DNA from: Ginglymostoma cirratum
Taxonomy: Eukaryota
Direction: 5' to 3'
Assembly (NCBI GenBank): GCA_024137785.1
Contig: JAHRHZ010000029.1
Coordinates: 27,803,793-27,867,619 of the forward strand
Length of the DNA stretch: 63,827 nt
The notes beneath the pieces are model-generated. The model saw only the letters and a program-made list of their open reading frames with translations. It was not told where the DNA came from and did no database searches. Both the position numbers and the translations under genes were made by a program. Below are positions 10,490 through 61,559 of this stretch, in pieces (positions within the stretch are counted from its first letter, which is position 1; each line of letters opens with the position of its first letter).

Positions 10490-10690
10490 TCTAGGGGAAG
10501 GCTATCAACCAATATTCACCATCAGGCACTGACTCTCTCAGTTACCTCGACTGCTCTTCCTCACATCTGCTTCCTTTAAGGACATCATTTCATTGTCCCA
10601 GTTCTGCCATCTGTGTTACAAATGTTCTGATGATACAGTCTTAGATGCCAGATTCCTCTTTCCTCAAGCAAGAATACCCCATTAACATGG
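10490..10690 (+). mobile_element. Old degenerate PLE RT fragment (host of the 10691 insertion; resumes after 10946)
   Basis: Degenerate similarity to the STNIH..TDS.SYLD.SSSH...KD.I..SQF motif of the PLE at 36739-37850. Confidence 0.55.
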
Positions 10691-10930
10691 GATAGTAAGA
10701 ACTGCCGATGCTGGAGTCAGAGATAACACCATGTGGAGCTGAGGAACACAACTGGCCAGGCAGCATCAGAGGAGCAGGAAAGCTGACGTTTCAGGTCGGG
10801 ACCCTTCTTCAGAAATGTTATTGTAGTAACAGAGATTTCTGAAGAAGGGTCCCGACCTGAAACGTCAGCTTTCTGCTCCTCTGATGCTGCTTGGCCTGCT
10901 GTGTTCCTCCAGCTCCACACTGTGTTATCT
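10691..10930. mobile_element. Fold-back mini-PLE (two family-A pLTR arms head to head)
   Basis: Arms 10691-10816 (-) and 10835-10930 (+), each with CTGAAGA...GAAACGTC. Flanks ATACCCCATTAACATGG (10674-10690) and ATGCCCCTTAACATGG (10931-10946). Confidence 0.85.
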
Positions 10931-12350
10931 ATGCCCCTTAACATGGCTGGTCCCCTTTCCTGCATTTCTGCTGTCATTTCTTACTGCATCCCTGATAAGG
11001 TTGTCCTTTGGCCCTCACCTTCTAGCCCACCAGCCTCCTCTGCTTCTTCAGCCTCCTCCAACATGACGCCACTGTTTGTTGTATTCATTTAAGCTCATTT
11101 TAATGTCCAGTAGTTCTGAAAGGAGCTATGTAAGTGCAAGCTTTGTTTTTAACGTGACCTATTATTATCTCCTTTTACATCATTGTGAAGCACCTTCGGA
11201 CATTTCTCCACATGACAGGCTTTATTTTCATGCTAATTATTGTTCCTGTTATTGAAGGGAAACATCTGAGAAATTATCATGTATAATATTAAAATCCATG
11301 TGGAAAAGATAAATCCCGAAAATTAGTTTTGGATAAACTGCCTGTTGGACAGATCAAAGTGACTAAAATACTTCTTGATTTAATAGACCTGGCTGTCAAG
11401 ACTTTCTCAAGCTATGCATCAAAGTGGTTTCCTAATCATTCTTAAGCTTTAAATACCAAGACTGACAGTAACAGTTATTTAGTGCAAAGTTCCTCATGAA
11501 ACCATAAGTATTAAACCTTTGCATTTGCTGACATCTAAGATATTCTGCATTATCCCAGGCTTTTCCGATCAGGTACAAAAAAGAAGCTAACACCTGAAGC
11601 TGATGGTTTCATGGGGCAAAGTGCCATACAGTCTTTGTGGAAGCATTCACTACTAATTTCAGTTCTTACCCTGTTAACCAGTGCCTCTACTCCTGAATGT
11701 GATGCATCAATAATGGACATTTCCTACATTATTTTTATTTTATTTGGCAGGGGATGCTGGAGATTGGCGGGGCATCTGCTTCTCTAGCTTCCTACTAAAC
11801 TCTATATAATAACAGGTACACATTCAGTGGATCTAAACACACCCTCTGACAGAGGGTATAATAAGATATGAGCTGGACACAGGATGGTTATTATTACTCC
11901 TCTTTAAAAAGCATGCCCATGACAAATATAAGAGCCCAGTCACTCCCAAGGTATGCAATGAATAATGGATACTTAAAGTGTTATGCTTTATAAAGCACTC
12001 TTCCCTCAATGTGAGAATTAAAACCTAGCATGCTTATCCTCCAATGTGACCTCAACTTTTAAATTATGAGGATCTCAGTTTCAGTTGATCATTTGTATGT
12101 GATGGATTTTTTTCTAGCAGTGATAAGAATAAGCACCTGACCAAGATTACTTTTGTGACAAGAAATCCGTACTTTTCAAATTTCCTTGAATGTGTTCAAT
12201 AGATTCTGAAAAGATATGTCTGTAGGACATATTCTTACTTTTTTTCACATTGTTATACATGTTGCCCTTTCAACCCCTTTTTATGTCTTATTCTTTTGAA
12301 TTTTTTCTCTTCAAATCACGGTTTACTGGAAGCTACACATCTAATACAGG

Positions 12351-13296
12351 GTTAGTAGGAACTGCTGATGCTGGAGTCTGAGTTAACAAGGTGTGGAGCT
12401 GGATGAACACAGCAGGCTAAGCAGCATCAGCGGAGCAGGAAAGCTGACGTTTTGGGTCAGCACCCTTCTTCAGAAATAGGGAAGGTAAAGGGGGCTCTGA
12501 AATAAATAGAGAGAGGGGAGGTGGTGATAGAAGATGGATAGTGGAGCAGATAGGTGGAGAGAAGACGGACAGGTCAAGGAGGTGGGGATGAAGCTAGTGA
12601 GGGTGAGTGTAGGTAGGGAGTTGGGATGGGGGTTGGTCAGTGAGGAGGGAGGAGCAGATAGGTGGGAGAGAAGACAGGTCATGCAGGCGGGGATGAGGGA
12701 GAGGGCTGGTCTTCAGATGAGTTTGGGGCTGGGGAGATTTTGACGCTCGTAAAGTCCACATTGAGACGATTGGGTTGTAGGATTCCAAGGCGGAATATGA
12801 GGTGCTGTCCCTCCAGTTTTCGGGTGGCATCATTGTGACACTAGAGGAGGCCCAGGATGGACATGTCGTCCAGGGAGTGGGAGGTGTTGTCGTTTGTCGT
12901 GAACCGAGCGTGGGTGCTCCACAAAGCGGTCTCCAAGCCTCCGCTTGATCTCCTAGACAAGGCCACATCGGGAACAGCTTCAAAATCTCCCTACCCCCAA
13001 CCTCATCCCAAGACCAGCCCCGACCTCTCCTCCCCGCTTCCTTGATCTATCCGTCTTGTCTCCCACCTATCCACTGCTCCCACCTCACTAACCAACCCCC
13101 ACCCCCAAGTCCTATCTACACTCACCTTTAATAGCTTCATTCCCCCCTCCTTGACCTGTCTGTCTTCTCTCCACCTATCTGCTCCACTATCCACCTTCTA
13201 TCACCGCCTCCCCCTCTCTCTATTTATCTCAGAGCCCCTTTCCCCTCCCCCATTTCTGAAGAAGGGTCCAGACCCAAAACGCCAGCTTTACTGCTC
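12351..13296. mobile_element. PLE 3' fragment with inverted duplication (family A)
   Basis: 12351-12975 (-) matches the 3' end of the 36348 element; 12976-13296 (+) is an inverted copy of the 3'UTR and pLTR. Flanks CACATCTAATACAGG (12336-12350) and CACATATAACACAGG (13297-13311). Confidence 0.85.
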
Positions 13297-13861
13297 CACA
13301 TATAACACAGGTCCTTGTTCTTTGCGCATAGAAAGAATATGTCCATGCACTGAACCTGTTTCAAGTCAACAAAATTGATGACAGCCAATCTCTGTTTCAT
13401 TTCCTCAGGGCAATGCCCTAACCAATCAGAATCAACCTTCCTGGTTTAAAATTTAGAGATTGACCGTTAACTGTAAGTCATCATTAATTGGTGCATTCGC
13501 CATGGAAACACCAAGAGTGCACATGCCAACCAGTCAGCATTCTCCTCTTAGATAGTATAAACTTTTTCCCCTTACTTTGGTGCTTTTTGTGAATTGCCTT
13601 GAGTATGAGATAGAACACTTTGACAAAGTGTGTTTTTTAGGAACACTCAATTTCTGTACTACCATAAATTTATTTAAATCATATCTAACTAAAACTGCCT
13701 TGAAGAGACATGCCAGAATATGAATGCAAATTGATATCCAGCGATTTAATTGCCATAATAAGCATTAAGTTTATCATTATTGGAGTTATGCCATCACTCA
13801 TAAAATAAATGAAGCTTCCAGTTAGTGTCAGTACTGTATCTTGCACACCATGGCCATACAA

Positions 13862-14210: not shown

Positions 14211-14723
14211 AGTATCTGTTTCAACCTCACTGATACCTCCTCTACCCTATGTTGCTAGAAAGTTGCCCTCAACTAATGTGTGTTTTTTGACACCAGTGTC
14301 TTTGGCTACAATGTCAGACAAAATAGAAAGCAGAACATTTCAATGTTTGTAAACACAGAGAAGCAACTCTGGCATTTTTAACAACATAGTAGAGGAAGCT
14401 AATAATCTAACAGCAACTTGTGAGACATGAATCCTCAGTGCTATCAGAACACTCCTTTATATTTTGAGTGTGTTAAGAACATTGAGAAAATGTCACATCT
14501 CCAGTCCATGATGCTTCCATAAGACATTTCCTGTTCTCCATCAAAAACCATGTGTACGGTTAAAACATCACATAGAAATTCCAATTCAACAGCAAGCTGT
14601 GTGGTCCAACCAGTCTACGTCAATGCTAATTCTTCATGCAAGAAGTAGTTCTAATCCCATATCCTATAGTAAATCTTTTCCTCCTTTCTTTAAATTGCCC
14701 CACTTAACATCATTTTCTTTTAA

Positions 14724-15147
14724 GTTAACAAGGTGTGGAGCTGGATGAACACAGCAGGCCAAGCAGCATCATAGGAGCAGGAAAGCTTGACGTTTCGGGC
14801 CTAGACCCTTCATCAGAAATGGGGGAGGGGAAGAGGGTTCTGAAATAAATAGGGAGAGAGGGGGAGGCGGATATAAGGTGGATAGAGGAGAGGATAGGTG
14901 GAGAGGAGGCAGACAAGTCAAAGAGGCGGGGATGTACCCAGTAAAGGTGAGTGTAGGTGAGGGGGTAGGGAGGAGATAGGTCAGTCCAGGGAGGACGGAC
15001 AGGTGAAGGGGGCAGGATGAGGTTAGTAGATAGGAGATGGGGGTGGGGCTTGAGGTAGGAGGAGGGGATAGGTGAGAGGAAGAACAGGTTAGGGAGGCGG
15101 GGACGAGCTGGGCTGGTTTTGGGATGCGGTTGGGGGAGGGGAGATTT
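14724..15147 (-). mobile_element. PLE 3' fragment (family A pLTR plus purine-rich 3'UTR)
   Basis: Near-identical to 36348-36770. Confidence 0.9.
14785..14820 (-). ncRNA. Minimal hammerhead ribozyme motif (family A), intact core
   Basis: Reverse complement: atttCTGATGAagggtctaggcccGAAACGTCaagc. Confidence 0.7.
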
Positions 15148-15825
15148 TGGCCTTCTGGATTCAATACAGAGTTCAACAACTTTAGGATGTGAGCATCCTC
15201 TCTCGTATCCTTGCCACAATCCTGACGTATCAAGCCTTGACACCACATCAGCTGATAACACAAACAACTCGCTGTCAATCACTAATGGTCCCCATCCTTC
15301 ATTTTCCCAGCTGACCTTTACACGTTCCTTTGGCTGCTCAAGTGTTCTCTCTCTGTCTGTCTTCTGTCTCTCTCTGTCTTCTGTCTCTCTCTGTCTTCTG
15401 TCNNNNNNNNNNTCTGTCTTCTGTCTCTCTCTGTNNNNNNNNNNNNNNNNNNNNNNNNNNNNNNNNNNNNNNNNNNNNNNNNNNNNNNNNNNNNNNNNNN
15501 NNNNNNNNNNNNNNNNNNNNNNNNNNNNNNNNNNNNNNNNNNNNNNNNNNNNNNNNNNNNNNNNNNNNNNNNNNNNNNNNNNNNNNNGTATTATTCACTA
15601 CACCACCACCATTCCCCACACCCGCCCACCAACACCACCACCAACCACCCATCTTTAATGTACATAGCAACCTTTTCCTAGCTGCAATCAGTTCTGAAAC
15701 AAGGGTCACTGGATCTGAAACATTAACTCTGCTTTCTCTCCACAGATACTTTCAGACCTACTGAGTTTTTCGAGCAATTTCTGTTTTTGTTTCTGATTTC
15801 TAACATCCGCAGTTCTTTGGTTTTA
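15148..15825 (+). mobile_element. PLE 3' fragment ending in a family-B pLTR; contains TC-rich microsatellite and assembly gaps
   Basis: gttctgaaacaagggtcactggatctgaaacattaactctg...cagttctttgg at 15690-15822; N runs at 15403-15412 and 15435-15587. Confidence 0.6.
15345..15434. repeat. TC-rich tandem repeat (TCTCTCTCTGTCTTCTG-like unit)
   Basis: Seen directly; runs into N gaps. Confidence 0.9.
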
Positions 15826-19559: not shown

Positions 19560-19680
19560 CATTTCACCTGATGAAGGAGTAGTGCTGTGAAATCTTGTGA
19601 TTTCAAATAAACCTGTTGGACTACAACCTGGTGTCGTGTGACTTCTGACTTTGTCCACCCCAGTCCAACACCAGCACGCC
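19560..19680 (+). mobile_element. PLE pLTR (family C) with decayed hammerhead motif
   Basis: TCAC CTGATGA aggagtagtgctgt GAAA tctt GTGA (stem I TCAC/GTGA), then aataaacctgttggactacaacctggtgtcgtg. A related copy is on the minus strand at about 60345-60430. Confidence 0.6.
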
Positions 19681-19919
19681 CATACACAGTTATATGCATA
19701 GATTATAAATGAGGACACAATCTACCATGTTATGTTTCGAATTTGTGCATCTCCTGCTTAATTCTGATGAGTTTTGAGTTAGGATGTGGGGAGGTGGTGA
19801 CGAAGCTGAGGGAGAATGTGCATAGGCCAGCATTTTTTGTATAGTGCATGGGAGCACAAAAATTCATTTTAAAACAGTTTTGTAGCTGTTTTATTGAAGT
19901 GTCAAGCAGCTGGAAGTCA

Positions 19920-20712
19920 GGGTCTTTGTTACGTACAGAGCGGAAGTAACCTACAAAGCGGCCACCCAGTCTGAGTTTGGTCTCGCCTGTATAAAAGAGA
20001 CCGCATTATGGGCAGTGAATACAGTAAACTAGATTGAAAGAAGTACAAATGAATCACTGTTTCATCCAGAAGGTGTGTTTTGGACTTTGGACGGTGAGGA
20101 GGGAGGAGGCCATTGCAGGTGCAATCAGGGAATGAGGAAGTGTTGGGAGTAATGGAAGGGTGGACAAGGATGTCACAGAGGACATGGTCCCTGTGGAATG
20201 CTGACAGTGGAGGGGACACGAAGATGTGTTTGGTGGTGGTATTGTGCTGGCGGAAACGGAAATTGGGGGAGATAATCCTCTGAATGCGGAGACTGGTGAA
20301 GTGGAAAATGAGGACACGGAGAACCCTATCATCATTCTGGGAAGGATGAGAAGGGGTGAGGGCAGAAGTGCAAGAGTTGGGTTGGATATGGTTGAGGGAA
20401 CCCTACCTCAGTTGCGTCTTTTTGGCTTTGCTCTCAGTAGAGCAGACTCCTTTTCTTCACACCTAAAATGTACATCAGTTTTGCATATCTACCTCTCCTT
20501 TAGCACCATTATCACTGCTTTTGTCTTTTTTCTGGACAATGTCACACTCTGTTCCATTTGCTCCTCCTTAACAGCATAAAACCACCATTTTCCCACTTCT
20601 TTCAGTTCCAAAGAACAGTGATACTGGATTGAAAACATTAACTCTGTTTCTCTCTCTATGAATGCTGTTAGACCTGCTGCATTTCTCCAGCATTTCCTAT
20701 TTTTATTTCGTA
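19920..20712. mobile_element. Degenerate PLE: GIY-YIG region (-) followed by inverted 3'UTR/pLTR (+)
   Basis: ORF track PPLSAFHRDHVLCDILVH matches PPLSAFRSDHSLHDSLVR of the 36739 ORF; family-B-like end at about 20600-20712. Confidence 0.75.
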
Positions 20713-23329
20713 TTTAAATGACTTGACAATTCCTCAAAGCTTCATGAATACTTTTAACAATCCCAGCGAGGTACCTGACCTCTCAGAAAGGGGCACCTTA
20801 CCTCCACAAATAACTTGGCAACTATAAACATTCTCCTCAAAAATCTAAAGCCTACGAGTAATGTTTTGGCAATTCTAGTAACCAAAATCGCATCAGTTTT
20901 AATGCACCTCCACCTTTTAAGTATGTGATTGCCTCTCAGTCAACCACCTATGTGCTAAGTATAGTTTGTCCCATTTCACAATGCCTCCCCTCATTCATCC
21001 TGTAAAAATGCTGGATTTAGGGCTGGACGTCTGGAATTATTCTCTGGTATTAATCTGGGTAAGAAGCAGACCCATTCTGGCTTTACAGAAATTCAGGCCA
21101 GAGTTAACTAATGTTGAATATTACTCTTTTTTATAACTGATAGGGACATTTCAATCTTCTAAGCTTCATCTATTTCAAGTAGTGGGCTGCTAACCTGTTT
21201 ACAGAGCTACCTGAATGTGGCACAACCTTGCACATTAATGAAGCAGCTGAGGTACCCTCTATCACCATGTCTTTCAACTTCTGGCCACCATTTATCAATT
21301 ATGAAGCAGAAAATTATGTTTCTCCATGATTGTACTCATAATGTATTCTAGACAGATAGGAAAGAAAAGGGTGAAGCTTAAAAAATCAAATTTAAGTGTG
21401 ATTCAGATCTTCTATTTTGTAGTCCCAGAGCTTTGAAACCTGCATTAATGAATTGCATTTCTTTTCTCTTTATTGTATGTGCCACTTCCTCCATTTTTTG
21501 CTTTTTCTCCTGCTCTTTCTCACCTTGCACTTTTTTCCTGATGAAAATAATTTTTTTCATAAAGCAGTTCTCTCTGTTCTCTGTCACTTCTCTCAGCCGC
21601 AACTTTAATCGTGCCCATTCTGTGCTATTCCACACGTTGATTGCTCATAGTTTCTGCTGACTTCAGTTTACTTTTTTTTAATCTCTATGCAAACTGCCAC
21701 TTCCAGCAGGCACTTTAATTCTGATGCTGGGATGTGTGACAGTGGCATCCCTCTTTCTTTCTCACTAACCTACCACAAACAAACCTCGTAAGTAGCAGCT
21801 GCAGGAGCATCCAAGCAAAGCAAGTCTTAACCAGAATGAAAGATGTGAAGTTTGCCTCCTTTTACATGGTATTGTTTTGTGTGAAGTGTGGAGTATCATG
21901 ATCTACCCAAGACAGCTGTACATAAATTGCAAAGGTAGGCAAGAAATAAATAAATACCAAATCAGAGCTGAGCATTTGCATTACTCGGTTGTCTGTTGGG
22001 TGTCTATTGTCTATTGGGTGTCTATTGGGTGTCTGTTGAACCATGCAAACCTGAAAAGTGTCAAGGTCAGTCTATTCCCTGTGTTGTGTTATGTGATGTG
22101 AGCTGGGAATGGCACCAGAATGGATTTTACCAATGTCTGGTTCTGAGAACAGAAAATAGGCTAGCAGAAGTGCTCAGGACCAGGAAGACTGCCCGATTCA
22201 GCCCCCAGCTCACTTCGAGATGCTGACTCCAAGTTTCCAGCTGTGACCATCTATCTAATGATAAGCCAAAGGTAAAACATCTAAATTTCCTGCTGTGTTC
22301 AATTCACCCACCATCCGTGTGTTCGTAGGGGGTCCCATTCCACCATCACTTCAATTCCAAAAACTCTTATCCTTGTTTTAAAATTCTTCCATGTCCCTTA
22401 TTGTGTCTGATCTCTGTAACTTCCTCCATACTTACAACCTTCTGAGACCTCTGCTTTCTTCCAGTTGTACCCTCCTGTATCTCTCAATTTTAATGATTCC
22501 ACTGGGCAAACATGCCTCACCTGAAACATCTCTATCCTCCTTTTTAGCGGTTTCTTAAAACCTACATCTGTGGGCAAATTTCTATTCATTTGCAGCAATA
22601 TCCTTTGCTCGCTGTTGCCTCTCAACATTTTTCTGTGCTAAAGAAACTACATTAATGCAAGTTACACATAGCTCAGTATCACACTTCAGTGGCATGTTTG
22701 TTCACTCGTGGGCATCATTGCATCATTGGCTGGCCAGCATTTATTGCCTGTCCTCGTTCTCCTTGAGAAGGTGGTGGTGAGCTGCCTTCTTGAGCCACTG
22801 CAGTCCATGCACTTTCTGTAGGCCTATTAGAGAGGGAATTCCAGGATTCTGGCCCAGACAAAGTTAAGGAATGGCGATGTATTTCCATGTCAGATGGTGA
22901 GTGGCTTGGAGGAGAACTTGATGGCGTTAAACTTATTATTGTCACTTTTCTTCTTCATTTTACTCCTGCGTATTTCTCCCCCAAAGATATTAACTTTCTG
23001 GGATACCAGTCTACAGGCACCAGTTGGCTTACTGCACTTAGCCAGGTGTGAATTATGAGCATAAGAGTCAGCAGGTTATCTAACCATGAAAGTCAACACA
23101 GCTGAATCTCAGCAACTTTCTCCACCAGTGGTATGCACATACTTTGATGGATCATGAAGAGGAGCAGAGAACCTGGATCTTGCTTTTGTCCTAATTAATA
23201 GGTTACAATGCTAATCGTAGTACTTTGCCTGAAAGATCAGAGTTTTACTTTCCTATTCTGCCTGAGGCAGTTTCTCATGTGAGAAATTTGTACCATTAGG
23301 AGTGCTTCCTTTAAAGTTTCTCATCTTTT

Positions 23330-26695: not shown

Positions 26696-26920
26696 GGGCA
26701 AAATACTGCAGATGCTGGAGATCTAATATAAAAACAGAAAGCACTGGATAGACTTAGCAGGTCTGGCAGTATCTGCAGAGAAAGAGTTAACATTTCAAGT
26801 CCAATGACGATGGAGTTCCAAAGAAATGCCATTAGATTCCAAGGTAACTCTGTTTATCTCTCAACAGATGATGGCAGGCCTGCCGAGTCTCTCCAGCGCT
26901 TTCTGTTTTTATCCCAGATT
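26696..26920. mobile_element. Fold-back mini-PLE (family B-like)
   Basis: aatactgcagatgctggagatc...cagcaggtctggcagtatctg...agttaacatttc, then inverted aactctgtttatctctcaacagatgatggcaggcctgccgagtctctccagc. Weak flank repeat ATTTCTA(T/C)AA. Confidence 0.75.
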
Positions 26921-27249
26921 TCTACAATTCTTCGAATGAAGCCACTGTTCTCGTCCACATCAGAAATAGCTAAACAGGCCGCATATCAATGATTCAATTC
27001 CACTATCTTATTTGAAACCTGAAAATGTCTTTTTTAATTTGGCACATTGCTTCAGACAGAATCAAATGAGCTGTGCTCCTGCAGAGAACCTTAATTAAAG
27101 GACCCTATTTAGAATGTAGACATTCTTGTGCAAAGTGCCAGTGATAGATTTGTTAGTAAGAAAAATAAGCAACTATATTTTGGCACAGTGAGCAAGACAT
27201 TTTCCACATTTTAATTGCCTCATTTGCTATTGACTATGAAACCCACACA

Positions 27250-30598: not shown

Positions 30599-31945
30599 TC
30601 ATAGAGTCATAGAGATGTACAGCATGGAAACAGACCCTTCAGTCCAACTGGTCCATGCTAACCAGATATCATAGATAAATCTGGTCTCATTTGCCAGCAT
30701 TTGGCCATAACAGTCTAAACCCTTCCTATTCATATACCCATCCAGATACCTTTTACATGTTGTAATTGTTTTAGCCTCCGCCACTTCCTCTGGCAGCTCA
30801 TTCCATATACACACCATCCTCTGCATGAAAATGTTGCCCCTTTGGTCCCTTTCAAACCTTTTCCCTCTCACCTTAAACCAATGCCCTCTAGTTTTGGACT
30901 CCCCCCACCCTGGGGAAAAGACCTTGTCTATTTATCCTATCCATGCCCCTCCTGATTTTATAAACCTCTATAAGGCCATCCCTCAGCCTCCGATGCTTCA
31001 GGGAAAATAGTCCCAGCCTATTCAGCCTCTGCCTATAGCTCAAACCCTCCAACCCTGACAACATTCTTGTAAATCTTTTCTGAGCCCTTTCAAGTTTCAC
31101 AATATTCTTCACGCAGTATGCCAAAAGTGGCGTAACAAATGTCCTTTACAGCCGCAACATGACCTTCCAACTCAATGCATTGACCAATAAGGGCAAGCAT
31201 ACCAAAAGCCTTCTTCACTATCCTATCTAACTGCAACTCCACTTTCAAGGAACTATGAACCTGCACTCCAAGGTTTCTTTGTTCAGCAACAGTCCCCAGA
31301 ACCTTACCATTAAGTATATAATTCGTGCAGTGATTTGCCTTTCCAAAATGCAGCATTTATCTAAATTAAACTCCAACTGCCACTCCTCGGCCTATTGGCC
31401 CATCTGATCAAGATCTCGTTGTACTCTAAGGTAACCTTCTTTGCTGTCCACTATGCTTCCAATTTTGGTGTCATCTGCAAACTTACTAACCATACCAGCT
31501 ATGTGCACATACAAAGTATTTTATATACATGAAAAGCAGTGGATCTAGCACCAATCCTTGTGACACACCACTGGTCACTGGCCTCCACCACTAACCTCTG
31601 CCTTCTACCTTCGTACCAGTTCTGTATCCAAATGGCTAGTTCTCCCTGTATTCCATGTGGTCTAAAAACCGAAAGACCAGTGGATGCTGTAAATCAGGAA
31701 CAAAAACAGAAGTTGCTGGAAAAGCTCAGCAGGTCTGGTAGCATCTGTGAAGAAAAAAAAATCAGAGTTAATATTTCAGATCCAGTGACCCTTCCTCAGA
31801 ACTCATTTCTGAGTAAGGGTCACTGGACCCAAAGCGTTAACTCTTATTTTTAATTCACAGATGCTGCCAGCCCTGCTGAGCTTTTCCAGCAACTTTTGTT
31901 TTTGTTCCATGTGATCTAACCTTGCTAACCAGTCTACCACCATAA
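30599..31945 (-). mobile_element. CR1-clade LINE 3' portion (interrupted by mini-PLE at 31666)
   Basis: FADDTKIG, LHFGKAN, LERAQKRFTRMLSGLEGLSYRQRLNRLGLFSL; catagagtcatag tail. Confidence 0.92.
31666..31904. mobile_element. Fold-back mini-PLE (family B) inserted in a CR1 LINE, 15-bp TSD
   Basis: Arms 31666-31803 (-) and about 31807-31904 (+). TSD TTCCATGTG(G/A)TCTAA at 31651-31665 and 31905-31919; CR1 sequence continues across the insertion. Confidence 0.9.
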
Positions 31946-34265
31946 AATACATTGCCTTCCTCTGCACATTTCAACCACCAGTTGATATTTTTACACAGGG
32001 GAGGAAGATTTCCTTTATGTAACTGATTCAACAAAATTATTAACAAGTATGCAAACAATGAATGCTGCTGTAATTCCAGCCTCCAAGGTTGTCTGTAAAC
32101 TGATTACAAAAGTCCTCCACAAAATGTATCTTATTTACACCATTATTGTTACAACATCAATCGGAGTTAACTATTTTCTGATAATCTTGTAAACCTGACA
32201 AAGATAGATCATCAAACATGGATGTTATACCTGCTGTGGTAAACATCCATTGAACTGATAGCATGGTTTATTAAACAGCACTTAGGTGCACACTTTAGGG
32301 TTATCACTTCCTTTTGTTCGCTAGGTTGGGTGCTCAGCTGAGAATGCTCACTGAGGTCACCAGGGTAACAGTTAACAAACTGCTGTTCCTGTGAAGGGAG
32401 GTTTTATTTGTGCAATCGCGCTGCAGGTTACTGCAGCACCAGATTATTTGAGCCACTCTTAGCTATAAAAACAGCATTACATTGCAGACAGCTGCCAGGG
32501 TTTCATTGTCATGCAGAAAGCTGTCTGGAGCCAGATTTCTAGCCATTAGATAAAAAGCATGTGAAGACGCTCGAGAATCTGTTCCCGTCAATCACACCTT
32601 AAACAAAATGACCAGCGAAAGGATCTAGTCATGGTGCTGAAATGCTAAAGTGAAAGCAGTTTAAAATGTCATCTTTCTCCGTGCTAACCCAGACCTAGAG
32701 AAGAAGAAAGATGCACAATTTCATCTTTTCTTGAAATCTAATCTTTTAGAGGAAATGTGCTAATTGACTTGCAATTATATAGCATTTTCATGTCCACTGA
32801 ACATCTCAACACAGTTTATGGCGTCAAAGTGGCAGAGGCATAGCGGTAATGTCACTGGACTAGTAATCTAGCGAGCCAGACTAATGCTCTGCTCATGCCA
32901 GCTGCTGGAATTTAAATTCAATTAATAAATCTGGAATTGCAAACTAGTGTCAGTAATGGTGATCATGACAGCTATCATCAATTGTCCTAAAATCCCATCT
33001 GGTTCACTAATGTCCTTTAGGGAAGGAAATCTGTAGTCCTTGGTCTAGCATAAATATGACTGGAAACCCACAGTAATTTCATTGACTCTTAACTGCCCTC
33101 CAAAAAGCACGAGCTCTGTTCAGGGGCAATTGGGAGCAGACGATAGATGCTGGCCTTGCCAGTGACATCCACCTCCCATGAAAGAATTTAAAAGAAAAAT
33201 TTATGAACTGTTGTAATTTATTGAATGTGTTGTAGTGTGATGAAGAAGAGCTGCACTGTGAGAGGTGCCATCTTTCAGATGCAACTAATAGAATCATAAG
33301 AATTAGACAATACGGAAGAGGATCTTCTGCCCATCGAGTTTGTATGACCTAAAAATACACTACTACCTACACTAGTCCCACTTTCCCACACCAGGCCTAT
33401 AGAATGAGGCCTGACTGTCCATTCAGTCAAATGGCACTGTTTCAAGGCAGAGTAGACAGTTCTCCCCACTGTCCTAACTGATCTTGTATAGTTTAATTCT
33501 GAGGTCGTTGAGTGTGTGTTCTATAAATGTCACTGCTCAAAAGCAAATAAAAACAAAGTGGCACTCTAAATAAATCAGAATTGTGAGACCAAAAGTAAAT
33601 TAAAAATTTCCAAATGCTAGTCCTCTTTAAGAATTGAAATTTTAACTTATTTTGATTCTGCTATAGGATTAACAGGATTCCTGTAGAGAACGGAAGTAAT
33701 CGCTAACGCTAAGAATGAGCAGGGGTTAGATTGTGATCACTACCTGCAAACTCCTTTTCATGTCACACATCCTTCTAATTTGGAACCATATCATCGTTCT
33801 TTCACTGTCACTGGGTCAAAGCCCTGGAACTCCCTCCCTTGCATACTATGGGACCACGCAGACTCTGTGGTTCAAGAAGATGGTGGCAACAGCTCGCCAC
33901 CACTTTATCAAGGAACATTAAGGATGGGCAGTAAATGTTGATCTTTTCACGGCACCCACTTCTAAGAGTAAATAAAAAGCTGATAAAAAAACCTGTTGTA
34001 GATGTAGTTCACATTGCAACCATGCAACAAAACCATAGAGATAATGGAAGTAAAAGATCCTGCACTAGTTCCTCTGATTCCTGTGATTGAGGGTGCTGGG
34101 TATAATGTTATGATTTTTGGGGAGACCATGAATATTTAAAAAGAAATTCAAACTCCCTGTTGTTAACTGAAAATATTGTATCAGAAGGCTTCACATACTA
34201 AACAAAAAATCTACTGTGTAAGAATCAAACAAAGGAAGCACTACTAACCTAACACTGTATTTCAT

Positions 34266-34372
34266 AAGAGATAAAAGATACTGCAGATGCTGGAGAATCC
34301 GAGATAACAAGCATGGGGCTGGATGAACACAGCAGGTCAAGCAGCATCATAGGAGCAGGAAAACTTATGTTT
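34266..34372 (-). mobile_element. Family-A pLTR (subfamily with catggggctgg), running into an assembly gap
   Basis: gagataaaagatactgcagatgctggagaatccgagataacaagcatggggctggatgaacacagcaggtcaagcagcatc. Confidence 0.85.
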
Positions 34373-34772
34373 NNNNNNNNNNNNNNNNNNNNNNNNNNNN
34401 NNNNNNNNNNNNNNNNNNNNNNNNNNNNNNNNNNNNNNNNNNNNNNNNNNNNNNNNNNNNNNNNNNNNNNNNNNNNNNNNNNNNNNNNNNNNNNNNNNNN
34501 NNNNNNNNNNNNNNNNNNNNNNNNNNNNNNNNNNNNNNNNNNNNNNNNNNNNNNNNNNNNNNNNNNNNNNNNNNNNNNNNNNNNNNNNNNNNNNNNNNNN
34601 NNNNNNNNNNNNNNNNNNNNNNNNNNNNNNNNNNNNNNNNNNNNNNNNNNNNNNNNNNNNNNNNNNNNNNNNNNNNNNNNNNNNNNNNNNNNNNNNNNNN
34701 NNNNNNNNNNNNNNNNNNNNNNNNNNNNNNNNNNNNNNNNNNNNNNNNNNNNNNNNNNNNNNNNNNNNNNNN

Positions 34773-34963
34773 GTGTGTGTGTGTGTGGGAGGGGTGGTGT
34801 GTGTGTGTCTGTGTGTGTGAGTGTGAGTGTGTGTGCGTGTGTGTGTGTGTGTGCGCATGCGCGTGCGCGTGCGTGTGTGTGTGTTGAGGAGGTGTGTGTG
34901 TGTGTTGAGGGTGTGTGGGTGTGTCTGTGTGTGTGCGGGGGGAGCGGGTGTGTGTGGGTGTGG

Positions 34964-35003
<40 letters not shown>
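34773..35003. repeat. (GT)n/(GC)n microsatellite next to a 400-nt assembly gap (34373-34772)
   Basis: Seen directly in the sequence. Confidence 0.97.
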
Positions 35004-35008
<5 letters not shown>

Positions 35009-35520
35009 GGTGGTAAAATCTCCTCGTGGGCCAACTCATAGGCCTGGCCACAGTGGCCATGAACAGACCCAGGTTGTGGGCCGTAGAGGGGGTCTTCGTT
35101 AGTGACTATCTGTTCCTCTGCCATGGCTATGTTTATGTCTGGGTGCCCTTGGAGAGGAGGATGCGGTGTGCAACAACACTCTCATTGCGTTTATTTAGAG
35201 ATGGATGGGCGCTGTGGATGTGTGGAGTGCAATGTTTTGTCCCTCCAACTCCATTTTAATTTATTCCCATCCGTCTCTCTCAAACCTACCTGTAATGATC
35301 GGAACCGGGTTGGCTAGGTTGATCTCATTGAGTATGAGTTCCCTGATTGAGGCTTTTAATGTGGCCAATCAGGGAGCTCTGGCTGACAGATAGAAACAGG
35401 AGTCTCAAGGATCCTCCACACTCTAGGGGCTGGCTCTGAGCTGGCTGGTCAGAGCCCATGAACTGAGCACATGTAAATAAAGGGTGACTTGGTGATGGGA
35501 AACTGGCCTTCTGATTTCTG

Positions 35521-35556
35521 ATTTCTGATGAAGGGTCTAGGCCCGAAACGTCAAGT
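35521..35556 (+). ncRNA. Minimal hammerhead ribozyme motif in PLE pLTR (family A), intact core
   Basis: attt CTGATGA a GGGT ctag GCCC GAAAC GTC aag: CUGAUGA core, stem II, GAAA, palindromic ACGT stem III, GUC cleavage triplet. Confidence 0.7.
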
Positions 35557-35606
35557 TTTCCTGCTCCTATGATGCTGCTTGACCTGCTGTGTTCATCCAG
35601 CCCCAC
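35521..35606 (+). mobile_element. Family-A pLTR copy
   Basis: Reverse complement of the 34266 and 35817 copies. Confidence 0.85.
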
Positions 35607-35815
35607 GCCTCTTACACACAGAAATCAGTCTGTTTGCTTTAATGTCTGCTTCTTAGCTGATAGTGTGTTTAACTGTTTTAAATAATCTAAGTAATTATTA
35701 GACATGATCATTAATATGACAGTGGAGGGAGTGTTTGCTGAAGTTGGATGAGGCTCTGACCAAGCAGACTGCTTTGTCCTGGCTGGTGTCGAAACCTGAA
35801 ACCATTCCATTGTAT

Positions 35816-35940
35816 CAGAGATAAAAGGTACTGCAGATGCTGGAGAATCGAGATAACAAGCATGGGGCTGGATGAACACAGCAGGTCAAGCAGCATCATA
35901 GGAGCAGGAAAACTTGACGTTTTGGGCCTAAACCCTTCAT
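35816..35940 (-). mobile_element. Family-A pLTR solo insertion
   Basis: Complete tail end; CATTGTAT repeated at 35808-35815 and 35938-35945. Confidence 0.85.
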
Positions 35941-36404
35941 TGTATTAACTTCTGTAACTTTTCTGCCATTAGCATTTGCTGGAACCTCATCTGATTCAAA
36001 TTTTAATGCCACTACATTGTGAATGCCAGACTCTGGTAGAACTGTGAAAAGCTACTAACTCTTGTGTGCGCACAAGGCTCAGAAATCCCTTCAAGAGGCT
36101 TTGTGATTAAAGCATTAAGATATCAGTAAACCTTTCTAGATCATCTCACAATTTACAGCAATGTACAGCATCCATGAGGATTTCTGCAGCCCTCTAGCCT
36201 TCTGTTCTGATCCTCTGCACCATTATTTCATTCTCCAGGATAAAACAGGCCAGCAAGTGCTTGACAATGCTGAGAGACTTTGACCACACACATTTGAATG
36301 GGAAACCAAAGAAACATAGGCTGTGAGATCATTACTGAAAGGAAAGAGATAACAAGGTGTATAACGAGGAACAAGCAGGCCAAGCAGCATCATAGGAGCA
36401 GGAA

Positions 36405-36440
36405 GGCTGACGTTTCGGGCCTAGACCCTTCTTCAGAAAT
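36405..36440 (-). ncRNA. Minimal hammerhead ribozyme motif in the 3' pLTR of the coding PLE
   Basis: Reverse complement: atttCTGAAGAagggtctaggcccGAAACGTCagcc; same orientation as the PLE ORF. Confidence 0.65.
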
Positions 36441-36738
36441 GGGGGAGGGGAAGGGGGTTCTGAAATAAATAGGGAGAGAGGGGGAGGCGGATAGAGGATG
36501 GATAGAGGAGAGGATAGGTGGAGAGGAGACAGACAAGTCAAAGAGGCGGGGACGGAGCCAGTAAAGGTGAGTGTAGGTGGGGGGGTAGGGAGGAGATAGG
36601 TCAGTCCAGGGAGGACGGACAGGTCAAGAGGGCGGGATGAGGTTAGAAGATAGGAGATGGGGGTGCGGCTTGAGGTGGGAGGAGGGTATAGGTGGGAAGA
36701 AGGACAGGTTAGGGAGGCGGAGACGAGCTGGGCTGGTT

Positions 36739-37850
36739 TTAGGATGCGGTAGGGGGAGGGGAGATTTTGAAGCTTGTGAAGTCCACATTGATACCATTGG
36801 GCTGCAGGGTTCCCAAGCGGAATATGAGTTGCTGTTCCTGCAACCTTCGGGTAGCATCGTTGTGGCACTGCAGGAGGCCCAGGATGGACATGTCGTCTGT
36901 GGAATGGGAGGGGGAGTTGAAATGGTTTGCGACCGGGAGGTGCAGTTGTTTAGTGCAAGCCGAGCTTAGGTGTTCCATAAAGCGAGCCCCAAGCCTCCGC
37001 TTGGTTTCCCCGATGTAGAGGAGGCCACAACGGGAACAGCGGATGCAGTATACCACATTAGCAGATGTGCAGGTGAACATCTGCTTGATGTGGAAAGTCT
37101 TCTTGGGGCCTGGGATGGGGGTGAGGGAGGAGGTGTAGGGGCAGGTGTAGCACTTCCTGCGGTTGCAGGGAAAAGTGCCGGGAGAGGTGGGGCTGGAGGG
37201 GAGTGTGGAGCGGACAAGGGAGTCATGCAAAGAGTGGTCGCTCCGGAAAGCAGATAAGGGTGGGGAGGGAAAAATGTCTTTGGTGGTGGGGTCGGATTGC
37301 AGATGGCAGAAGTGTCGGAAGATGATGCGTTGGATCCGGAGGTTGGTGGGGTGGTATGTGAGGATGAGGGGGATTCTGTTTTGGTTGTTATTACGGGGAC
37401 GGGGTGTGAGGGATGAGTTGCGGGAAATGCGGGAGACATGGTCGAGGGCGTTCTCGACCACTGAAGGGGGGAAGTTGCAGTCCTTGAAAAATGAGGACAT
37501 CTGAGATATACGGGAGTGGAATGTCTCATCCTGGGAGCAGATGCGGCGGAGGCGAAAGAATTGGGAATAGGGGATGGCATTTTTGCAGGAAGGTGGGTGG
37601 GAGGAGGTGTATTCTAGATAGCTGTGGGAGTCGGTGGGCTTGAAATGGATATCAGTTTCTAGGTGGTTACCGGAGATGGAGACAGAGAGGTCCAGGAAGG
37701 AGAGAGCGGTATTAGAGATGGTTCAGGTGAACGTAAGGTTGGGGTGGAAGCTGTTGGTGAATTAGATGAACTGTTCGAGCTCCTCAGAGCACGAGGCGCC
37801 GCCGATACAGTCGTCAATGTAACGGAGGAAGAGGTGGGGTTTAAGGCCAG
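36739..37850 (-). pseudogene. PLE RT C-terminus, Cys linker and GIY-YIG endonuclease (disrupted)
   Basis: LFLRYIDDC (YIDD at 37821-37810), FLDLSV, KPTDSHSYL, SHP..CKNAIPYSQFFRLRRICS, linker CNRRKCYTC, GIY-YIG VVYCIRCSRCGLLYIGETKRRL...HFNSPSH...EQQLIFRLGTLQPNGIN. The RT part has in-frame stops; 36739-37500 is open. Confidence 0.92.
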
Positions 37851-38040
37851 CGTACGTACGAAACGTCAGCCTTCCTGCTCCTCTGATGCTGCTTGGCCTG
37901 CTGTGTTCATCCAACTCTACACCATGTTATCTCAGATTCTCCAGCATCTGCAGTTCCTACTATCACTGAAAGGAAAGACTTTATTTTGCTATGTTCTGTT
38001 TCAGTTGTGTGGTGAAGGATTTATCTTGGCATTTGACTTC

Positions 38041-38355
38041 AGTCATAGACATACATAGCACGGAAACAGGCCCTTTGACTCAACTTGTCTGCCCCAACCA
38101 GGTTTCATGAACTGAACTAGTCCCATTCACCTACATTTAAGCACATATGCCTTTAAACCTTTCCTATCCATGTACCTGTGAAAACGTCTTTTAAATGTTG
38201 TAATTGCACCCGCCTCTACCATATCCTCTGGCAGCTCCTTCCATCTACACACCACCCTGTGTGTGAAAACGTTGATGCTCAGGTCTGTTTTAAACTTTTC
38301 CCCTCTCACCTTGAACATATGCTCCTCTAGTTTTGGGCACTAGGGAAAAGACCTA
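38041..38355 (-). mobile_element. CR1 3' end
   Basis: FKVRGEKFKTD...FTHRVVCRWKELP. Confidence 0.85.
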
Positions 38356-41701: not shown

Positions 41702-43337
41702 TTGCCCTGAATTAACTTCATTTTGTAGGTAACGAGACATGCTTGAAATTGTTTGACATTTTGATACCTCTGCCGAGTCAACTGGGTTAAAACAAGAATT
41801 ACTGGAAACACTCAGCAGGTCAAGTAGGGCCTGTGGAGAGAGGAAACAGCTAATATTTCAAATTGGTGACCTCTCGTCAGCTCACTGGGAAATTTGGGCA
41901 ATTATTGCCGAACATTTCAGCTGGAACCTGGGGTTGACTTGGTGTTCCTGATCTTTGACCATTGCAACTTTTATTCAAGTATAACATGGGATAACCCCAA
42001 AGCTTATATTTTGGATGGGTCTTGGACAGTGTACGTGACCTGCCTTCACTCCTGGAGGAGTCACAACATTTTTCTGCCTTTAAAGCTTCAGTTGTCTATT
42101 TTTGGTTGAGAGGGATGCTGGTACTTACTTTGGCAATGCACTGTTACATTCTCATTGTGGTTTGCCTTGTGCAGTTTACACAACATATCTGTTTCTAAAG
42201 TCCCAAAATCAGACTTTGAGCTCAATACCACATGCAGTGGATCCCGAATCGGAGTTGTCTGACACAGTAAGCCACATACCAGCACAAACTGGCAGTGGAC
42301 TTGTAAGTTAAATTCCTTCTTTACTCCCATTTTTGCCCTCCCATCTCAAAGAGTAGTGCAAACTGATACAAAACTACTTTTAAAAAGTATATCTCTGGAG
42401 CAGTCCAACAATATAAATTGAGCACGTGCCCTCAAACTCAATGGCTTGTATGAAAGCTAGATTCTGGGCTGTCTCTCAAGAGAAATAAGATATGAGACTC
42501 TGCTGGCTAATGTAATATAAAGCAGGATTTCATGTTGAGGCCATATTTCCACCGAGAAATGCAATTTAAAAAGAGGCAGCATGACTTTGCAAACCACAGC
42601 ATCACATCTAACACCTGCGACACTGGAGCTCTTAAATCAGAAACGTTTTGATCTGGTAGCTTTCTCACATACACATAGTGAGCACTCTCCTCTTATGTTA
42701 GGGGCATGTAGGCATGTCATTAAGACTCAGCTGCTGCTATAAACACTTGGCTGCTTTCATCTTACCATGCTGTTACGCATTGGCTATTGTGAATGCTGCT
42801 GGGAACTATTTTTATTCACAGTGTTTTACTGTCAGTTCCCAGTGCACATTTGTCACAGTTGTGCAATTGTACACCTCCAGTGTCTGCCTCTCCACAACCA
42901 AATTGAACTACTTCTGAGTCTTTATGGATTCTGACTCTTGGGCATTTGAGAGCAGTATATTAAAAGGTGACATCGACATTGCTTGAGTAAATATAAAAGC
43001 AGAGTGACCAATGCTGGAGGCCATCAAAACAAGACACAGTAGCAGCGCACGGGGGGAGTGATGTCATCATGTACATGGTAATGTCATTGTGTTTGGAGGT
43101 GCAGTACTATTTCAGAGGCAGCTGCTTGGGTGTGGGAGTCTACAAAAGCAAACCTGTATCGTGGTCACCATTGTATTGAGACTGTTGGAGCGAGCAAAAG
43201 AGATAAGACTGGCTTCATGCTGATGCCTTCATAAGAATATATGCTGGAGATCACAGTATTGGTTATGAAGCTATCCAATATCAGACAGTGGGCAGCCCAT
43301 TCAAAAACTAGACTATCCAGTTCAAAATCAGACATCA

Positions 43338-43535
43338 TATGTGGAATGAACGTCCTGAGGAAGTAGTGGATGTGGTCACAGATACAGCGCTTAAAAGATA
43401 CTTAGATAAGTGCTTGAATAGGAAAGGTTTGGAGGGATATGGGCCAGTGGGACTAGTTTTGTTTGGGATTATGTTCAGCATCGACTGGTTGGACCGCAGG
43501 GTCTGTTTCCGTATTTATGATTCGATGACTCTGTG
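43338..43535 (+). mobile_element. CR1 3' end
   Basis: WNERPEEVVD...FKRYLDKCLNRKGLEGYG-like. Confidence 0.8.
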
Positions 43536-44528
43536 AGAAACCCCAAAATACAAGCACTTCAATGTTAAAATGTTTAGTTTCAGTTAAGGGGCCTTGTCTT
43601 TTTACATACAGTCTGAATCTCTGTCATCATGCTAGACTTCTCCTGCAGATTGCTCTGTTGGTGTAAAATGTACAGGACCAATTCCCCGTGATTACGTTAT
43701 GACAGGTGACAGTATCTATGGTTCTGTCAAGCTAAGAGAGCTGGACATATTCCAGGTTTCTGTGCAAGCCGGTTTGGAAGCATTCCCAGGTTACTCCTGG
43801 AAGTCTGACCAAAAGCCATGTCCGCTGACAGCAAACATGCCCCTCTTTGGTGTTGGACAGTTGTGTGAAATGTGTGTTTCCATTGTAGGTCTCAATCAAT
43901 TAACTTTGAACTCCAACCTCATTGCTTCCTGCAAAGAGATATTTCGTGTGCTTATGAGCGCTCTGACTTTTTGCATACTGAATTGTTGAACTTACCCATC
44001 CTAGACCATATTGCCCAAATGTTATAATGAGGACGGCAATGGTGTTGTAATAGTATGCAACAAGTAAGCCAGAACCTCAGGCAAATTTTTCTGGGGCCAT
44101 GAATTCAAATTTCACCATTGAATAAAAATATGAAATGAAAAGCTGGTCTAGTGGCAACCACATAACCACTGTCGATTGTCATAAAAACCTGTATGGTTCA
44201 CTAATGCTCTTTAGGGAAAGAAGTGTGCTGTCTTTACCCGGTGCCGTCTAATGTGACCCCAGGTATCCAAAAATGTGGTTGACTCTTAACTGCCCTCTGG
44301 ACAATAAGGGATGGGCAATAAATGCTTGCTTAACCAATGGCTTCCACATCCCATGGACAAAATGTTTTAAAAATTAAATAATTTGGGGATTTACCTTAAT
44401 TCAAAGAACCAACAATTTTAAATGTACTTTGCATGATGTATTTGAATGCATGTCAAATCTACGTCTAATGAAATGTTCACTCTCCCCATGCAGTCTTGAC
44501 AAGTATCGTTTTTCATTCTTCTTGTCAG

Positions 44529-46050: not shown

Positions 46051-46839
46051 TTAGCTCATGACTCTATGATTATGACTGTATAAAATGCTATAATTGAAAT
46101 TTGCTCAGACTAAGAGCATTGTAATTCATAGTCTGGTATCACAATGCATTTAGCTTCAATTTAGCTTCAATTATCCTACTACAACCACGTTTATTTCGGT
46201 TTTAGTAAGGTGTTTAACCAGGTCTTCCTATACTTCCTATACTTATCTGCACAAGAGATAAAATATTTCGAAACTTACACTTAAATACATTATTCAGTTG
46301 AAAATAGAGTGCAGAGGTGACACAGTGAAGGGACAACATATGGTTCCACAGGAAATGTAGAGAACAGATGAACCTTCTCTTTATTTTGAGGACTATTTTC
46401 ATGAGCTGTAGAGTGGAGTTATATCATGGAACCATTCAGTACAATGGTGGTTTCCATAGAGAAACCAAGCCATTCAGATTAATATGCCCCCTTTCATCTG
46501 CGATAGGATACCGTTCCACTTTACTCTCTGATACCTTGTCCAACCAGTTAGGAGTGTTACCAGCCATTGAACCATGGAGGAGATCACAAACTGTACCCAA
46601 TTCTGTTCCCCCAGTCAAGTGGACAGAACTTGAAATGGATAGAAACTCGTTCAGATGTATTTTCTCCCTTCCATCACAGTGTGTAGATTCATTTTTCATT
46701 TACTGCTCCTGATCCATTGATAAGTACATCTCTGCTTCCTTCAACAAACCTCAGAAAAGAATTGTTATTCTGCTGTACTGAACACTAATGACTTGTGATC
46801 ATATTTAGCCAATATTTCATAGTCATTGTCATGGGATGT

Positions 46840-47864: not shown

Positions 47865-47902
47865 AGTTAACGTTTCAGGTCCAGTGACCCTTCTTCAGAA
47901 CT
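47865..47902 (-). ncRNA. Minimal hammerhead ribozyme motif (family B), intact
   Basis: Reverse complement: AGTT CTGAAGA a GGGTC actg GACCT GAAAC GTT AACT. Stem I AGTT/AACT, stem II, palindromic AACGTT, GUU triplet. Confidence 0.7.
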
Positions 47903-47921
47903 GATGGCAGGTATGAAAAAG

Positions 47922-48115
47922 AGATAATAGGAACTGCATATGCTGGAGAATCCGAGATAACAAGGTGTAGAGCTGGATGAACACAGCAGGCCAAGCAGCA
48001 TCATAGGAGCAGGAAAGCCTAAGGGTCTAGGCCCGAAACGTCAAGCTTTCCTACTCCTATGATGCTGCTTGGCCTGTTGTGTTCATCCAGCTCAACACCT
48101 TGTTATCTCTTATAT
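47922..48115. mobile_element. Nested fold-back family-A mini-PLE, 14-bp TSD
   Basis: Inner TSD CAGGTATGAAAAAG at 47908-47921 and 48116-48129; arms about 47922-48018 (-) and 48021-48109 (+). Confidence 0.9.
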
Positions 48116-48594
48116 CAGGTATGAAAAAGTTGGTTTTTATGCAGAAGTTAGGATGGGAGGAGAGGGAGCAAGTGATTTTCAGAACAGCCTTCAGAACTGA
48201 AGAAGGGTCATTGGACCCAAAATGTTGACTCTGCTTTCCCTTCACAGATGCTGCCAGATCTCCTAAGGTTCTCCAGCAATTTCTATTTTTGTTTCTGATT
48301 TACAAGTTGATGCTCAAATTGTTTGATTCAGTTATGAAGGCCCCTTCCATAGCATTCAAGACCTGGAATAGACTCAAATCCTAGCTTCTGGATCAGAGGT
48401 AGGGATGCTACCACTGGGCAACTGCTGCTGTGGATATATAATATTATACAGTACAGTGTGAAGCTAGTGACTGCTCAGCCACTGTAAATACATGACTTAC
48501 CATGTTGTTTCTTTGCTCCAACATTATGTAGTGTCTCAGATAGTCCCTGAAGTACTTTAAGAGGTCTGACAGAGCCCAGAAAGGTTCCTTAAGA

Positions 48595-60330: not shown

Positions 60331-61559
60331 TTATCAGCCTGTGGAGGTGCTGATGTTGGTCTGAGGTGGACAAGGTCAGATATCACGACACCAGGTTATA
60401 GCCCAACAGGTTTATTTGAAAACAGAAGTTTCTTTAGGTGTCGATTAGATAAGGATGTATTAAACAAACCCAAGATGCTGTTAAATCTTTAACAGGTTTC
60501 AATTGATTAATATGTATATGTAAATACCCAAACTTCTTTCAAGGCACTATCCTGAGAGAACTAAAGGTTTTTTCTTTACACTGATGAGGTAACATTTTAG
60601 GTCAAACAATGCACGTTACGTGAGAGACCTTGTTTAGAATCAGTTTGTGTTTTGCATTGGAGATAGACTGGCTTTATTTCTAAAGTAGGAATTTATAAAA
60701 TGCCACTGACTAACTGTCTATAAGTTGCACTTTTTGAACAAAACAGAATGCATCTCCAAATACAAGTTCACCCCACAAATTTACATGTTTGTACCTATGT
60801 GTGTGAGAGCAAGTGTACAAAGGGACAGCAAGCGAGCATGCTCGAGGGAGAAAGTTTGGCATTTGTTGCATGTCCATTATCAGAGGAGTCCTGATTAGTA
60901 TTGAACATGTGGAGCCACTGAAAACTCCCATCTCTAACCTTACAAAGGGAAGGTCATTGATGAGAGAGCTGAAGGTGATTGAGTGTAGGACACTACCAAG
61001 GTCGAGGGGGCTTATGGTGTCACACCCACCTCAGGCCCAGCTAGTGACACCTACGTCGTGTATGAATAAAACTATGCAGCAGTCACTCCTACGGATTCTG
61101 GCTTGAACAGATGCATCTGACAGATAGGTCACTGAAAACCTAGCCCAGTGAATGCTCAGACCAACTACAGCATCCAAACAGAAGTCATCAAATACTACAC
61201 TAAGATATACAGCCTGCACAGCTACATGCTGACATTCAGAAAATTTACAGTATAGTTGATATTAAGGTGTTTGCAATTTTTGTTTTAAAGAGCTTTAATT
61301 ACCAATTCTGTTCAAAGAAAAAGTATCAGTGTGAACTTAATATGTAAGAATATTGGCCACATCACATATTCAGTGCCCCTTTAAGTGGGGTGACTGTATA
61401 AGATTGTGTACGAATGAAGCATCCTATAGAAAGATTATGGGAATTTTCAACCTGTTTTATTCAATCAACTTATACATATTTGAAATTACCTAAGAGGAGT
61501 CAATTCCTTAAGCGATATATAAACTTAATATTGGTGCTCTAGTAAGTCAGTCACACACA

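Follow-up and report, generated by a model that had tools for sequence, protein, structure and literature searches.

Minimal hammerhead ribozymes (HHRs) have been known from Penelope-like elements (PLEs) since 2014, with thousands of examples in the genomes of fish, coelacanth and frog (Cervera & de la Pena 2014, PMC4209133). For one of them, activity is described there as absent in the monomer and low in the dimer, and a review (PMC6765202), citing Lunse et al., says likewise; cutting, 3' of N17, is described only for dimers, which the palindrome of stem III holds together. The D. virilis HHR, which has a helix I of 2 bp, cleaved weakly in an extended version (PMC4209133). In the lizard Anolis carolinensis, the HHR of a Poseidon element overlaps the start codon and has been assayed for activity (Frangieh et al. 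2024, PMC11167929). According to that account, it cuts only with the PLE protein, insertion in vitro proceeds without cutting, RNA reads ending at the cut were not seen, and reverse transcription begins at two internal sites, which define the tail. Insertions of EN+ PLEs are described as having 5' truncation, an inverted 5' copy and an optional tail of 30-40 bp (Craig 2021). Non-LTR retrozymes (PMC7229834; bioRxiv 10.64898/2026.07.22.740005), which also carry a type I HHR of PLE origin, form tandem monomers with canonical HHRs and circular RNA, and one chondrichthyan is reported to have PLE-derived retrozymes (bioRxiv 10.64898/2026.07.22.740005). Cartilaginous fish are absent from Table S1 and Fig. 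S3 of PMC4209133, and our literature search found no relevant paper on PLE hammerheads of sharks.

Here we describe HHR motifs in a stretch of 63,827 nucleotides from Ginglymostoma cirratum (contig JAHRHZ010000029.1), referred to below as the window. They share with the metazoan PLE motifs the CUGANGA-H core, the extra base, the G10.1-C11.1 pair and a palindromic 15.2-16.2 centre with no helix III, as well as the location in pseudo-LTRs (pLTRs) and the occurrence of many solo copies and opposite-strand pairs; one group, family A, differs in having a weaker stem I than most published examples and a nearly self-complementary stem II. The Acropora digitifera Neptune HHR has the same stem I 3' arm and the same 4-bp/4-nt stem II as family A, but the family A 5' arm no longer makes three Watson-Crick pairs. 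The Anolis Poseidon element, of a different PLE clade, likewise has a tail with two end classes and copies spanning the cut site, whereas the window is without an ORF start. Short-stem-III dimer hammerheads (Lunse et al., PMC5785218, as cited in PMC6765202) also have a palindromic minimal stem III and an association with PLEs.

Hammerhead motifs in the window

We scanned the window with a descriptor of the minimal type-I hammerhead that is based on Cervera & de la Pena 2014 and asks for a palindromic centre and a stem I of at least 2 bp. It returned seven motifs, against none in each of 150 dinucleotide shuffles, and four motifs when stem I was set to at least 3 bp; an exact core pattern matched six times, against none in 100 shuffles. 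Since the copies in the window are repeats, these counts represent about two to three independent lineages, not seven. A model built partly from the window copies gave 15 matches at E<0.01, so that the decayed copies listed in the initial annotation are present but do not exhaust the set. The Rfam search yielded six matches at E<=1 in the window, with no hammerhead family among them; all are microRNA or snoRNA hairpin look-alikes, mostly on inverted pairs. Scans for the motif and the protein in viral and prokaryote collections gave no match, and a tRNA scan found none.

The motif at 35521 is a member of family A with an intact core. Its stem I 5' arm occupies 35520-35524 and is followed by the core CTGATGA (35525-35531), an extra A (35532), a stem II of 4 bp with a 4-nt loop (35533-35544) and GAAA (35545-35548), the last A of which opens the palindrome ACGT (35548-35551); C17 is at 35552, and cleavage is predicted 3' of it. 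Stem I comprises five pairs here, two of them G-U, and four Watson-Crick pairs at 47865c. At 10835, 10781c and 36405c it is reduced to 2 bp and at 14785c to 3 bp, and in most family A copies this 2-3-bp stem contains a mismatch.

Across 19 aligned rows the core positions are invariant, partly through the choice of rows, and the extra nucleotide between 9 and 10.1 is A in all 19, the rows having been picked from descriptor matches. The G10.1-C11.1 pair is G-C in 14 rows and G-U in five, the G-U forms fitting CpG decay. These observations bear out most of what had been proposed from the DNA alone: the named motifs sit at the positions given, they carry all four hallmarks of the 2014 PLE form, and the extra A after A9 is constant. 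The palindromic stem III, which had been ascribed to all families, is found in 18 of the 19 rows, the exception being the family C copy with its non-palindromic centre.

Most copies are damaged. G12 has been lost at 12473c, 13256, 35943c, 31809 and 48197, and changes gather at two CpG sites; the C/T variation before GAAA and the CA, TG and TA forms of the palindrome would accordingly represent CpG decay. We considered the change of the palindrome from CG to TA at 31799c as a compensatory one; CpG decay explains it equally well, and it is not counted as support. The family is very repetitive, with matches in 87,615 contigs from one public run.

The host element

The hammerhead of the 3' pLTR on the minus strand follows the stop of a 5'-truncated PLE ORF at a distance of about 300 nt (Table 1), placing the motif between ORF and tail. 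The open frame within this ORF encodes 327 aa (36739-37722); above 37722 the RT part is interrupted by stops, and it abuts the inverted 5'-truncated pLTR. The GIY-YIG match in Pfam (E 1.5e-4, 22.4 bits) is slightly below the cut-off of 22.6. The 327-aa frame has 72 longer relatives, most of them with RT annotated and some with GIY-YIG too; the two of highest identity are from Chiloscyllium punctatum (68% over 52% of the query, 65% over 40%). A CX2-5CxxC linker is given for Neptune and Nematis (Craig 2021), and this linker, together with the HHR match to the Acropora digitifera Neptune, suggests that the element belongs to Neptune. Other PLE remnants are found at 19823-20402c, 12724-12979c and 10276-10566. 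The insertion anatomy is that of EN+ PLEs, as 5' truncation, inverted 5' copies and the optional tail are all present in the window. The pLTR location is direct for family A and follows for family B from homology and an inverted junction. We read the motifs as PLE minimal hammerheads of the dimer type, as had been claimed, because of the adjoining RT/GIY-YIG ORF, the covariation in related Neptune loci and the fit to the 2014 descriptor.

LINE-like fragments, CR1-type by eye, are scattered through the window (2336-2958, 18543-19329, 25448-26249, 30602-31110, 38041-38336, 43335-43537, 46809-47385, 49190-50575 and 58632-58991), of which only 58632-58991c has a Pfam RVT_1 match (E 0.0013). A dispersed repeat family of about 170 nt occurs at 13949-14182, 32894-33061 and 44164-44340.

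Families and insertions

Table 1. HHR motifs, pLTR copies and the PLE ORF in the window (c in a position, or a minus sign, denotes the reverse strand; a point, a feature on both)
Feature	Position	Strand	Basis or remark
Family A minimal HHR of the AAG subtype with intact core; cleavage predicted 3' of C35552	35520..35557	+	descriptor; 51.4 bits against a model of which it is a member
Solo pLTR-end copy, HHR and tail, 5' end at stem I foot	35521..35618	+	profile and pairwise alignment
Minimal HHR, family A, 3' pLTR of PLE; stem I only 2 bp	36404..36440	-	descriptor
Tail downstream of HHR, short class	36346..36403	-	
Pyrimidine-rich 3' UTR, ORF stop to HHR	36441..36738	-	
5'-truncated Neptune-type PLE ORF: RT end, Cys linker CX4CX2C, GIY-YIG endonuclease	36739..37869	-	
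Inverted pLTR, 5'-truncated, beginning inside HHR, long tail	37858..37969	+	
Family A 3' UTR, intact HHR (14785-14820) and tail	14723..15149	-	
Head-to-head family A pair, HHRs 10781-10816c and 10835-10870	10689..10930	.	
Inverted family A pair around GIY-YIG remnant (12724-12979c)	12347..13298	.	both HHRs G12 to A
Family A copy truncated within core, G12 to A	35814..35940	-	
Family A tail entering assembly gap	34264..34373	-	
Palindromic family A insertion, junction inside HHR, nested in family B element	47921..48115	.	
Best-formed family B minimal HHR, with U17, a stem I of 4 bp and a stem II of 5 bp	47865..47902	-	
Two decayed family B copies (31765c, 31807), head to head	31665..31910	.	
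Decayed family B copy	15689..15824	+	
Family B copy, decayed, paired in inverted orientation with 47898c	48192..48305	+	
Decayed family B copy, inverted beside PLE ORF remnant (19823-20402c)	20603..20718	+	
Decayed B-related copy, different HHR variant	41789..41881	-	
Family C: decayed HHR (19564-19599) and unrelated tail	19564..19699	+	
Second family C copy, without HHR	60333..60431	-	

The initial annotation distinguished at least three pLTR families with different stems. These families are not all separate: profiles of A and B match each other's copies, one A copy can be aligned with one B copy through both motif and tail, and the two families share stem II arms and differ in loop length. 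The shared arms and the alignment indicate that A and B are relatives, not independent inventions, so the proposed difference in stem II between families holds for C only. Family C shares just the core with A in pairwise alignment and is represented by a single decayed HHR copy; this motif (19564) fails the descriptor through a G-G mismatch in stem II and its non-palindromic stem III centre. Its stem I arms are found in published PLE HHRs, for instance that of Petromyzon Poseidon (Cervera & de la Pena 2014, PMC4209133), and a PLE origin of family C is plausible from this likeness. A PLE profile search found no PLE ORF adjoining family C in the window, and the repeat upstream of it at 18543-19329, considered as its ORF, translates by eye as a CR1-type LINE remnant, gave no PLE-profile match and was set aside. 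The B-related copy at 41789-41881, absent from the initial annotation, may be listed as a fourth, decayed variant, with a stem I 3' arm that resembles the coral Neptune motif.

Several insertions have a complex structure. The nested insertion at 47921-48115 is flanked by a 13-bp duplication (47908-47920 and 48116-48128) in the UTR of the family B element, and a duplication of similar length flanks the head-to-head pair at 10689-10930, in which an 18-nt filler separates the two feet and a G-U pair closes stem II. Three family A copies with common private changes lie around a (GT)n array and a 400-N gap at 34264-35940; this cluster is possibly one complex insertion or a local duplication. The copy at 35521 has a 10-nt inverted repeat on either side.

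Covariation in related loci

From metagenome contigs we took 80 loci of related elements, including Neptune loci of marine animals; 50 of the 80 have enough sequence. The exact core occurs downstream of the ORF in 22 of the 50, and with at most two mismatches in 37 by eye, five more matches being spurious and eight loci having no match; the strict descriptor is matched in 11 of 38. Many of the 50 belong to one coral-type family, hence they are not independent. The motif of the commonest relative (e.g. L010) is identical to that of the Acropora digitifera Neptune HHR in Fig. S3 of Cervera & de la Pena 2014.

When each motif type is represented by a single row (ten rows, four from the window and six from the loci), stems I and II covary across lineages, with a score of 0.817 against 0.278 +/- 0.051 in shuffled alignments and at most 0.164 in slid registers of the same set. 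Seven of the nine pairs have changed on both sides, and both inner pairs of stem I form in all ten rows, with three and five pair types. A 19-row set scores 0.775 against 0.276 shuffled, and the eight window motifs alone 0.540 against 0.290. The rows were chosen via a pairing descriptor, which favours high covariation, and the shuffle control ignores the relatedness of copies. Within the window, six of nine double changes appear, on our reading of the alignment, to come from the single decayed C copy and one from CpG decay. The earlier proposal that the stems differ and still pair thus stands across the related Neptune loci, and in the window alone depends mostly on one C copy. What truly supports covariation is the spread of pair types over distant lineages.

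Two of the related loci are worth describing separately. L023 (400-3700) contains what appears to be a full-length Neptune-like element whose direct pLTRs lie at a distance of 3066 nt; the open frame of this element crosses the 5' hammerhead, and an ATG lies just past the cut site. L013 (120-165) has, upstream of the ORF, a minimal HHR with a GC palindrome and a long loop II, which probably derives from another element.

Predicted folding and catalysis

For four family A copies the predicted active-dimer fold has energies of -8.7, -3.5, -1.9 and +3.9 kcal/mol, and for family B -12.1 kcal/mol, while the best competing cofolds of the same five copies reach -21.8 to -33.8 kcal/mol, in models without terms for tertiary contacts, Mg2+ or protein. 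The predictions prefer other folds to the active dimer. With 40 nt of upstream sequence and the tail added, the probability of stem II falls to at most 0.01. In the CTAG-loop subtype, stem II (35533-35544, 14797-14808c, 36417-36428c) comes close to self-complementarity, and two RNAs can pair through it in a 12-bp duplex that is predicted to outcompete the active fold. An upstream anti-hammerhead hairpin was considered as a selected feature and rejected, as pairing between core and upstream sequence beats shuffled upstream sequence in only one of 12 motifs (0.05 level).

The family A motif could accordingly be a catalytically dead relic, or a structural signal for protein binding, RNA dimerisation or the cDNA end. 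The short stem I, with its mismatch in most copies, and the intermolecular stem II duplex predicted for the CTAG subtype would both fit such a state, and of the 11 family A 5' ends that can be resolved, none lies at the scissile bond. The lack of such ends is in line with Frangieh et al. 2024 (PMC11167929), where insertion in vitro is described as not requiring cleavage, and the site as lacking RNA ends. The same study reports, however, that the lizard HHR cleaves when the protein is supplied; an equally short helix I in D. virilis supported weak cleavage when extended, and the core is invariant in our 19 rows, partly through row selection. We consider such a relic or structural signal unlikely, and the strongest of the alternatives.

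Copy ends

We numbered the ends of copies from C3 as 0, which puts the cut at +28; 3' ends are lower bounds from pairwise homology. The 3' ends of family A fall at +92 to +98 (five copies) and +122 to +132 (six copies), with one at +49, giving two end classes about 35 nt apart that match the optional 30-40-bp tail; inverted pairs have the long tail on one arm and not on the other. Three of the 11 family A 5' ends are at -5, four at +2 to +22 and four far upstream. Starts 2-6 nt before the core account for three of these 11 (including 35521, 10816 and 10835), about five of 14 B-type copies by eye, and three of 11 extra copies in invertebrate Neptune loci (the inverted copies of L007, L047 and L053). 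Head-to-head inverted pairs joined at or inside the hammerhead occur at 7700-7914, 10689-10930, 26699-26929, 31665-31910, 47921-48115 and 55666-55780. These pairs form long hairpins, three of which give spurious microRNA-precursor matches in Rfam.

We also compared public contigs of two organisms with positions 36330-36800 of the window. Among the best 12 of 710 loose-end rows, those with most support and unrelated flanking sequence (agreement about 0.35) comprise 109, 385, 165 and 119 contigs of run X2 at 36438-36441 and 77 and 27 contigs of run X14 at 36439-36440, totalling 778 and 104; these positions correspond to -2 to -5, in the stem I 5' arm. Two features account for the cut-site rows among the same 12, namely the additional A of the AAG subtype and the divergence of the 36404-36440 copy. 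Summed depth of X2 over the motif rises from about 6.5 to 10-14 million, in a saturated set where depth is not copy number, and shows no such rise in X14. A run recorded as RNA (X19) gave one contig, ending short of the HHR, run X22 gave three partial reads, and the RNA status of X14 is a guess.

Candidate causes of this pile-up are run-off at a transcript start, RT dropping off the template after the folded or protein-bound motif, microhomology to AT-rich target sites, or a short non-autonomous master. An initiator-like YYANWYY is present at -4 in all five A and B copies tested and at -7 in C. It is absent near the stem I foot in five of six invertebrate motifs, so we dropped it as a general cause and keep it as a lead; the transcript start of the D. 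virilis element is given as about 125 nt upstream. An intron end at helix I, as in D. virilis, is unsupported, with YAG at -2 in B and -23 in A, and none of the 15 joints listed, of 22, has intron ends. The largely open-access literature that we searched held no description of a pile-up of copy 5' ends at the stem I foot. Perhaps the 5' foot of the motif, rather than its cut, sets the copy starts, as a template 5' end and/or a dimerisation signal, with catalysis secondary; we regard this as distinctly doubtful. If true, a dimerisation signal handing two uncut RNAs to a dimeric RT/endonuclease would explain the inverted insertions of PLEs.

That the short copies are non-LTR retrozymes spreading via circular RNA is very improbable. 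Retrozymes derive from PLE pLTRs and are known in one chondrichthyan; none of their tandem monomers, canonical HHRs or circular RNA is seen in the window, where there is no tandem array with an HHR unit, the motif is minimal, and the copies, solo or inverted, have PLE tails rather than cut sites at their ends. Domestication as host regulatory ribozymes, which the small number of copies with an intact core might suggest, is more improbable still: the family is highly repetitive, most copies are decayed, and within inverted pairs the motif would be locked up in long hairpins. A chance likeness between a repeat and the hammerhead core, for which the lack of an Rfam hammerhead match could be cited, is refuted by the covariation across lineages, besides the null counts of zero and the fixed place downstream of the ORF across lineages.

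A proposed conditional switch in the source element

We favour, with a probability of roughly 0.88, the reading that the motifs are minimal type-I HHRs in the pLTRs of Neptune-type PLEs, acting as a conditional switch in source elements, and that the window copies are mostly inert. In source elements the motif would be a conditional, probably protein-assisted processing switch, and new copies would be made from uncut RNA by reverse transcription that begins within the tail, at 65-105 nt downstream from the cut. Those in the window would then be mostly dead insertions, decaying at CpG sites and having no function of their own.

With the window, a class described in 2014 gains Neptune examples of shark type. 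Copy ends can be counted in a family of such very high copy number, and the accumulation of 5' ends at the stem I foot, with none at the cut, offers a cheap handle on the role of PLE hammerheads.
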